Positions 20,063 to 20,918 of a DNA stretch of 64,000 nucleotides are shown piece after piece. The translations under genes and the position numbers were made by a program. Location of the stretch: the NCBI GenBank assembly GCA_964016885.1, contig OZ024752.1, positions 23,064,001 through 23,128,000 of the forward strand. The letters are read 5' to 3'. This DNA is from Eledone cirrhosa. Its lineage: Eukaryota. The notes under the pieces are model-generated. The model saw nothing but the letters and a program-made list of their open reading frames with translations, was not told the origin of the DNA and did no database searches. Within the stretch, counting starts at the first letter, position 1. Each line of letters begins with the position of its first letter.

Positions 20063-20069
<7 letters not shown>

Positions 20070-20918
20070 ATACATTAACAGAGAAAGCTTTAAGCTATAC
20101 TCTGACTGGCTTCCATCTCACTCAACAAACATTAGGATATACCTTAGTATAATCCCAATTTTACGTTTGGGGTGCTAACTATATGTATTTTGCGGATAGC
20201 CAGTTGTATTATTTTATATGAGACATAATTAAAATATATCTCCCTTTCCAAACAATTGTTTCATTATAAGTTTTCTACAAGTTGGGAAAAATGTGTCCCG
20301 GTTATGTAGAAGCCTGCACATATTCAGTAGGAATATATGCAGGTGGGCACTTATAAATCATCAGTGGATGCCCGTCAAACATCGATATAAAAAAAAACTT
20401 TCTTACCGATATCCAATCCAATGTTAGCGATGATCCCTCTCCGTATCAGAATGACCGCCAAATTTGAAATTCCAGCAGTCTCATAATGAGAAATTTCACA
20501 CTGTCATCAAGCGGAAAGGGGAGGTCATCGCGAAACATAAGAAAGTAAAATAATATACACGCGGGTCAATTAATTTTTTCAACAATTTTAACCTTGCGTG
20601 TGAAGAACTCAATTAGATTTTAAAAAAATAAATATATGCATGTATTATTTATACACGCATATAGGTATTTTCTTAGGCTGAAAACAGAGATATGATACCA
20701 GAATAACAATCAATATTTCATAGTAATAATAAATACGGAAAGTTACACTTAAAAGGTATCTGGAAATATTCATCTCTGGCCAAATCAAGAGTATAATATT
20801 TAATACATTAACAGAGAAAGCTTTAAGCTATACTCTGACTGGCTTCCATCTCACTCAACAAACATTAGGATATACCTTAGTATAATCCCAATTTTACGTT
20901 TGGGGTGCTAACTATATG
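20063..20918 (-). mobile_element. Non-coding hammerhead-containing element with identical 123-bp direct repeats (retrozyme/PLE pLTR-like, 733-bp period)
   Basis: 20063-20185 is identical to 20796-20918 by inspection. Internal minus-strand hammerhead, no substantial internal ORF, 3' end abuts (TA)n/(CA)n. Confidence 0.7.
20247..20368 (-). ncRNA. Type I hammerhead ribozyme with branched, extended stem II
   Basis: Minus strand: TCCA-CTGATGA-t-TTATAAG-[two hairpins: cctgcatatattc/gaatatgtgcagg and ttctaca/tgtagaa]-CTTATAA-t-GAAA-CAATTG-T-T-TGGA. Palindromic stem III ACAATTGT, GUU cleavage triplet. Confidence 0.75.

Follow-up and report, generated by a model that had tools for sequence, protein, structure and literature searches.

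A dispersed non-coding repeat of Eledone cirrhosa with a covarying hammerhead fold and the insertion pattern of a Penelope-like element

Introduction

In a 64,000-nucleotide stretch of Eledone cirrhosa DNA, which we call the window, a sequence with a 733-nt period stands beside a (TA)n tract and holds a predicted hammerhead ribozyme. This raises the question of what kind of element it is, by which machinery it was inserted, and whether its ribozyme takes part in that process. In endonuclease-bearing Penelope-like elements, the role of the hammerhead has been termed unclear (PMC8557442).

The insertion in the window

The first-pass annotation, made from the letters of the window, had described a retrozyme-like element with a 733-bp period, identical 123-bp direct repeats, no substantial open reading frame and a 3' end joined to (TA)n. 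Each of these features was recovered: the two repeats are exact (Table 1), the longest stop-to-stop frame in a doubled unit reaches 64 aa, and the tract lies at the 3' end. The unit has a GC content of 33%, and the whole insertion amounts to 1.17 units. The window copy is relatively young, in line with the recent insertion that had been proposed: its repeats show 0/123 differences, where 31 partial tandems average 3.3%, and it departs from the column-majority letters at 7/724 positions, though 123 bp make a weak clock. Because the 123-bp repeat excludes the hammerhead, the window copy has only one, and it could not alone release unit-length RNA; it is probably a dead end unless read-through transcription occurs.

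Table 1 Features of the insertion, in positions of the 64,000-nt window.
Feature	Position	Strand	Remarks
Full 733-nt unit, subfamily A	20063..20795	-	unit position 1 = 20795, 733 = 20063
Upstream partial copy, 5'-truncated	20796..20918	-	last 123 nt of unit; identical to 20063-20185
(TA)n target at fixed 3' end	20033..20066	.	last bases of unit ambiguous with tract
19-nt block common to subfamilies	20117..20135	-	7,126 exact genome matches
Type I hammerhead	20247..20368	-	stem I 20368-20365 with 20250-20247; CUGAUGA 20364-20358; GAAA 20262-20259
Hammerhead stem II	20357-20349 with 20271-20263	-	U.U at base
Loop II insert, hairpin 1	20313..20343	-	two-sided change in 6/11 pairs
Loop II insert, hairpin 2	20273..20311	-	outer stem nearly invariant; two-sided change in one inner pair
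Palindromic stem III / loop III, predicted dimer helix	20252..20259	-	self-complementary, or close to it, in every subfamily
Predicted cleavage site after GUU	20250..20251	-	188 nt upstream of fixed 3' end
Predicted pseudoknot or competing hairpin	20345..20373	-	GGGC 20373-20370 with GCCC 20348-20345
ATATAT, commonest 5' junction of family copies	20234..20239	-	+12 after cut

Other repeats surround the insertion. Their inverted-repeat and duplicated pieces flank it (window 19635-19725, 19920-19981 and 21061-21289), and pieces of 19635-19981 were found again in another locus (L386). A U4 snRNA match of 72.5 bits lies at 19247-19375 (-), next to (TA)(TG) tracts, and is degenerate in its 3' part. 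Most of the window (22731-64000 and 4-9424) is a 27-bp satellite of ~1,534 copies together with a degenerate 5-bp (CACCA) array.

The hammerhead fold

A descriptor scan of both strands of the entire window, strict enough to miss a minimal hammerhead near 15805-15848, gave a single match: the complete type I hammerhead on the minus strand, 20368-20247, that the first-pass annotation had drawn. Its stem I has 4 bp and its stem II 8 bp, the latter above a U.U pair; the triplet is GUU, stem III is the palindrome ACAAUUGU, and 95 nt separate CUGAUGA from GAAA. The U.U pair and the two hairpins in loop II are present as described, the insertion previously put at ~80 nt measures 77 nt, and both analyses place the predicted cut between 20251 and 20250. 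A further pairing, absent from the earlier description, joins the strand upstream of stem I to the top of stem II (GGGC with GCCC). It is paired in 95/96 cells, with zero two-sided change and no covariation; because of this lack of two-sided change, we grade it as a predicted pseudoknot or inhibitory hairpin.

The hammerhead region folds with z = -4.44, and 0/200 shuffles fold as well. The minimum-energy monomer fold differs from the hammerhead, at -41.1 kcal/mol against -26.5 kcal/mol for the active fold without the pseudoknot. The covariation alignment comprised 24 of 28 rows from six subfamily groups, four C copies with a long stem III being left out as misaligned. Standard pairs fill 93.7% of its 984 cells, a count inflated by related copies, compared with 87.0% in shuffles and 33-49% in slid controls. 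Among these 24 copies 12 of the 41 pairs change on both sides, the changes stemming from few subfamily events, and taken alone this count is no higher than shuffles can give, 56/500 of them reaching it. Covariation across copies, which the first-pass annotation had proposed as a check, was seen in stem I (U-A to C-G), stem II (A-U to G-C and A-U to U-A), both loop II hairpins and the stem III palindrome (A-U to G-C); the base of stem II varies among U.U, A-U and G-C.

Across the family, the stem III palindrome is kept through sequence change. Perfect palindromes (ACAATTGT, ACGATCGT and ACGGCCGT) occur in 109 of 188 distinct contexts, most of the remaining ones being near-palindromes, and five tested variants self-pair at -6.4 to -14.7 kcal/mol. 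This fits action as dimers, the mode that has been described for type I hammerheads of metazoans (PMC4209133). An NUH triplet is present in 188/188 contexts, as the search pattern demanded, and the cleavage triplet alternates by subfamily between GUU, GUC and GUA. The catalytic boxes and the H at the cut are retained across subfamilies that are 63-86% identical, and among young copies the core positions are not clearly more conserved (5/484 versus 2.0%). The U.U pair at the base of stem II, found in 119/188 contexts, tells against the reading, set out below, of an element whose RNA the ribozyme cuts.

The Rfam hammerhead families gave no match at the gathering score, nor did they appear among 43 matches at E up to 10. 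A search of published main texts found no natural hammerhead with a comparably branched loop II. The core descriptor of PMC8557442 permits 17 nt where the window hammerhead has 95, a spacer also longer than the 35-50 nt of the 'half core' cases given there. Since a covarying 77-nt loop II insert escapes both Rfam and published descriptors, ribozyme counts in animal genomes may be too low.

A dispersed family of at least six subfamilies

The window element has many dispersed relatives, with which it makes up a superfamily of non-coding repeats whose hammerhead fold covaries. Searching the source assembly (3.0 Gb) gave 3,473 first-look candidates, 40 of which were scored, and the unit is thus multi-copy as had been expected. 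Neither a single-copy unit nor a core and stems unconserved among copies, the sequence-level outcomes that would have refuted the first-pass reading, was seen. The window copy belongs to subfamily A (~733 nt); subfamily B has units of ~743 nt, some of 990-1,030 nt with an internal duplication, and subfamily C units of ~700 nt. Divergent neighbours led to further subfamilies (E, F and G) and variants, at least six subfamilies in all. Whole-unit identity is 86% for A-B, 66% for A-C and 63% for B-C, and the divergence spans the entire unit.

Exact matches in the genome number 219 for the hammerhead 3' half, 486 for the A/B 3' end and 616 for the C 3' end; for each pattern, including the 19-mer common to the subfamilies (Table 1), the reversed-pattern control gave 0 matches, and tandem copies are counted twice. 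Among 50 loci sampled for the 19-mer, 43 map to family members and 7 had been sampled earlier. We infer that this block is a candidate protein-recognition signal. Two metagenome matches to it were treated as chance, their flanks being without similarity.

All 30 top fetched loci, a set biased to long copies by the query, have one full unit after a partial unit that starts at unit position 121 to 688. Copies of the family share a fixed 3' end at (TA)n, with (TA)3 following it in 61/64 A/B and 56/63 C elements, show variable 5' truncation and often form partial tandems. The partial tandems and microsatellite ends anticipated by the first-pass annotation were therefore found elsewhere in the genome, but circular permutation was not, the 3' ends being fixed instead. 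In the same way, its terminal redundancy stands as an exact repeat and falls as an LTR-like fixed feature, the repeat length marking one among many 5' truncation points. Two intact hammerheads occur in 7/169 sampled elements (one counted in two samples), and inverted 5' copies in 2/147. In the published main texts searched, no description of the 733-nt family was found, and the main text of a mollusc repeat annotation (PMC13282606) makes no mention of hammerhead, ribozyme or retrozyme; the family may already stand in some repeat library.

Comparison with known elements and search for a partner

The closest likeness is with animal non-LTR retrozymes, which are also non-coding, low in GC and built of tandem units each with a type I hammerhead (PMC7229834; 10.64898/2026.07.22.740005). 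The family shows the features by which they are recognised in sequence, namely a type I hammerhead with intact core, no coding capacity, low GC and no fixed LTR, and the axolotl HHR_Amex2 shares the U.U at the stem II base. For animal non-LTR retrozymes, with units of up to 972 bp, an origin as non-autonomous derivatives of Penelope-like elements has been proposed, and 733 nt falls within the 51-972 bp range of Li et al. (10.64898/2026.07.22.740005). The present units, at ~690-1,030 nt, are nevertheless longer than the classical 150-450 and mostly occur as 0.2-2 units, with no long arrays seen; the 77-nt two-hairpin insert and the predicted pseudoknot take the place of the usual loop-loop contact. 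Pseudoknotted hammerheads described by Perreault et al. 2011 (PMC3088659) likewise pair the strand that precedes stem I on its 5' side with the top of stem II, over four base pairs. Unlike the cases given there, the pairing here belongs to a junction of several branches, has no pair that changes on both sides and might instead act as an inhibitory hairpin.

Penelope-like elements have been described as keeping the same 3' end while losing sequence at the 5' end, as forming partial tandems and as inserting at (TA)n (PMC8557442), and their reverse transcriptase begins at fixed internal sites (PMC11167929). The family shares the fixed 3' end, 5' truncation, pseudo-LTR and (TA)n with these elements, with non-autonomous derivatives such as Chlamydomonas MRC1 and with the TA-targeting Hydra, Neptune and Naiad clades (PMC8557442, PMC4209133, PMC11167929), as well as a hammerhead placed close to the 3' end, in which stem I is short, stem II long and stem III palindromic. 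It departs from the published accounts in that the unit has no ORF, inverted 5' copies, a common if optional trait of Penelope-like elements, are rare, no regular 30-40-bp tail was noticed, and no autonomous element with the same 3' end appeared among the fetched loci. Plant LTR retrozymes resemble it in a size near 700 nt, in being non-autonomous and in bearing a hammerhead; they have type III hammerheads in fixed LTRs, a primer binding site, a polypurine tract, 4-bp duplications and GC above 55%, in contrast to the type I hammerhead, variable repeat length and 33% GC found here. With one type I hammerhead lying outside the repeat, this identity was ruled out. Judged on its sequence, the family would behave like an animal non-LTR retrozyme or non-autonomous Penelope-like element, a variant within a known class.

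We consider it likely, with a probability of about two in three, that the family is a non-autonomous retroelement moved by a reverse transcriptase-endonuclease which it borrows from some TA-targeting Penelope-like element, and whose RNA the ribozyme is predicted to cut. Intact TA-ending Penelope-like elements are present in the genome. One of them, the autonomous PLE-A, has intact frames of 1,240 aa and 24,502 exact 3'-end matches; a 5'-truncated, internally deleted remnant of it, with a (TA)n end and the minimal hammerhead mentioned above, lies in the window at 14926-16003 (+). Pfam gave no family for three window fragments or for a 1,045-aa PLE-A frame, and because of this the labels Penelope-like and Hydra-like are ones we presume from motifs read by eye against PMC8557442.

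As a sequence partner PLE-A was rejected, having no sequence in common with the unit, and it is an unlikely partner also because it inverts 38/59 of its 5' ends, compared with 2/147 in the family. No ORF-contiguous copies of the unit were found in the loci inspected. Among 30 distinct Penelope-like 3' regions, drawn from 80 endonuclease matches in fetched loci of types other than those with an N-terminal endonuclease (Naiad), none resembles the unit, the one high score coming from a separate neighbouring copy. Since the Penelope-like elements examined have no sequence in common with the unit, mobilisation by such an element is deduced from the insertion pattern. In PLE-A itself, 6/59 5' ends, all of them flagged inverted, coincide with a short palindrome that surrounds stem I, 34-41 nt upstream of the hammerhead cut.

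Template of the insertions

If the family borrows its enzyme in this way, RNA would come from the rare copies with two hammerheads and would be cut, the ribozymes probably acting as dimers held together by the palindromic stem III, and ligation might close some monomers into circles. The enzyme would nick (TA)n and prime internally, at a constant position 188 nt downstream of where the RNA is cut. On an uncut or circular template it would read through the hammerhead and yield more than one unit, as in the window copy.

The partial tandems bear on which template was used. In 31 tandems of subfamily A, the two copies agree at 239/246 comparisons of common polymorphic sites, of which the unit has 39, where 97 differences would be expected if they were independent. 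In 31/31 the two copies differ less from one another than from an average copy elsewhere, and 23 rare variants in 11 elements are common to both copies, compared with ~1 by chance. The agreement at 239/246 comparisons implies that some step regularly re-copies one monomer. For retrozymes, a circle is the known re-copying route (PMC7229834); the agreement is consistent with it, and template jumping or conversion would do as well.

It is quite possible, if not what we would expect, that no circle is formed, and that linear read-through transcripts of tandem masters are copied while template jumping or gene conversion keeps the copies alike. The class of inserts with one unit plus 180 nt would fit a partly cut linear dimer, and the divergence between the two copies, 3.3%, is not below the 2.5% that separates a copy from its nearest relative elsewhere, although overlapping duplicates may have entered that minimum. 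Against this, a new mutation in a linear master hits one copy, yet the common-site comparisons agree almost throughout.

5' ends of the copies

Where the template had been cut, the borrowed enzyme would run off at the cut and the cDNA would join the target through ATATAT 10-12 bases inside, giving inserts of 170-195 nt or of a unit plus 180 nt. We located 5' ends in elements that had been sampled in genome order by way of their 3' ends. Over three samples, 41 of 168 ends, about a quarter, lie just after the predicted cut: 18/63 in the A/B sample (one near-duplicate of 64 dropped), where they fall in an 18-nt window for which the flanking density predicts <2; 17/62 in the C sample (one duplicate dropped), three of them placeable only between +10 and +19; and 6/43 in the all-subfamily sample. 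The pile-up spans +1 to +20. Most of its junctions are at ATATAT 10-12 bases past the cut; the other ATATAT sites in unit A hold 0-1 5' ends each. Roughly half of the copies read through the hammerhead. PLE-A has ATATA after its minimal hammerhead too, with 1/59 5' ends there (0/21 among non-inverted copies); the difference from 41/168 in the family has a Fisher p of 2e-5, in groups that differ in length and 5' habit.

The simplest reading of this pile-up would be run-off at a 5' end made by the predicted cleavage, and the pile-up may be a mark left in the genome by a ribozyme active in the living animal. With the same carrier and the same element, however, the ribozyme could rarely or never cut in vivo, the enzyme stalling at the 3' edge of a large, protein-binding fold and joining at the nearest ATATAT. 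Stalling predicts an identical 5'-end position; most junctions are at ATATAT and not at +1, and about half of the copies pass through the hammerhead. It also has a parallel in the one reconstituted system, from the anole, where cleavage of a Penelope-like element was dispensable in vitro and no reads ended at the cut (PMC11167929). We regard it as unlikely. One junction coincides with the cut and two more are no further than two bases from it (L059, L138 and L145), none of the three samples has an end in the 15-25 nt that precede the cut, and the catalytic boxes, the H at the cut and the palindrome persist through the change between subfamilies noted above. Like the anole result, it tells against a working ribozyme that 8/9 Xenopus retrozyme dimers did not cleave (10.64898/2026.07.22.740005).

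Within the borrowed-enzyme reading, we tentatively propose, while thinking it somewhat improbable as a whole, that large multi-branched pseudoknotted hammerheads form a subclass missed by standard searches, which cuts RNA in vivo and sets the 5' boundary of the commonest insert, a conserved ATATAT ten bases inside docking the cDNA on (TA)n. If true, this would be genomic evidence for hammerhead function in a Penelope-like cycle, and some clades thought to be 'hammerhead-less' may hide long-insert ribozymes. The class of element is already known; what goes further is the ribozyme architecture and a testable 5'-end footprint. With thousands of dated insertions whose 5' boundary is sharp at the predicted cut, the question of the hammerhead's role becomes testable.

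Independent mobility of the unit

The unit might instead be a detached pseudo-LTR or 3' UTR of an unseen autonomous element, not mobile on its own. Xenopus retrozymes match pseudo-LTRs (10.64898/2026.07.22.740005), and Hydra-like elements in this genome have long T-rich 3' UTRs and hammerheads with extended loop II. We nevertheless hold this to be very unlikely, the unit end joining its own unit start in every tandem seen, the subfamilies having diverged over the whole unit and the inspected copies never continuing into an ORF. One locus (L134) with a 5.2-kb spacing of the 3' motif proved to be a local duplication, not an autonomous element. An ordinary satellite or chance fold spread by DNA-level duplication, which a few local duplicates would suit (L134, L172/L173 and L265/L266), can hardly account for dispersed copies with unique flanks and a fixed 3' end, and is contradicted by the polar truncation and the covariation.

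Further hammerheads in the genome

Several other long-loop hammerheads occur in the same genome. A second family, D, is a TA-ending unit of ~854 nt whose hammerhead differs in sequence and has a similar predicted topology (L169:60-330 (-); L207-L226; L220), with an 84-nt spacer, two hairpins, the palindrome ACTCGAGT, a GUC site and ~185 nt from cut to 3' end. It gave 3,095 first-look candidates, and no upstream Penelope-like frame was noticed in 20 loci. A Hydra-like element with a 1.3-kb 3' UTR carries a hammerhead with a U3-A8 core variant and a long loop II (L205:1650-3000 (+); L380), and hammerheads with 50-55-nt spacers were seen in other repeats (L089, L094, L114 and L197). In the 3' UTR past a Hydra-like endonuclease fragment (L102, minus strand), a small hammerhead has the stem III ACAATTGT and a GUU site; as these match the stem III and site of subfamilies A/B, mixed dimers are conceivable.
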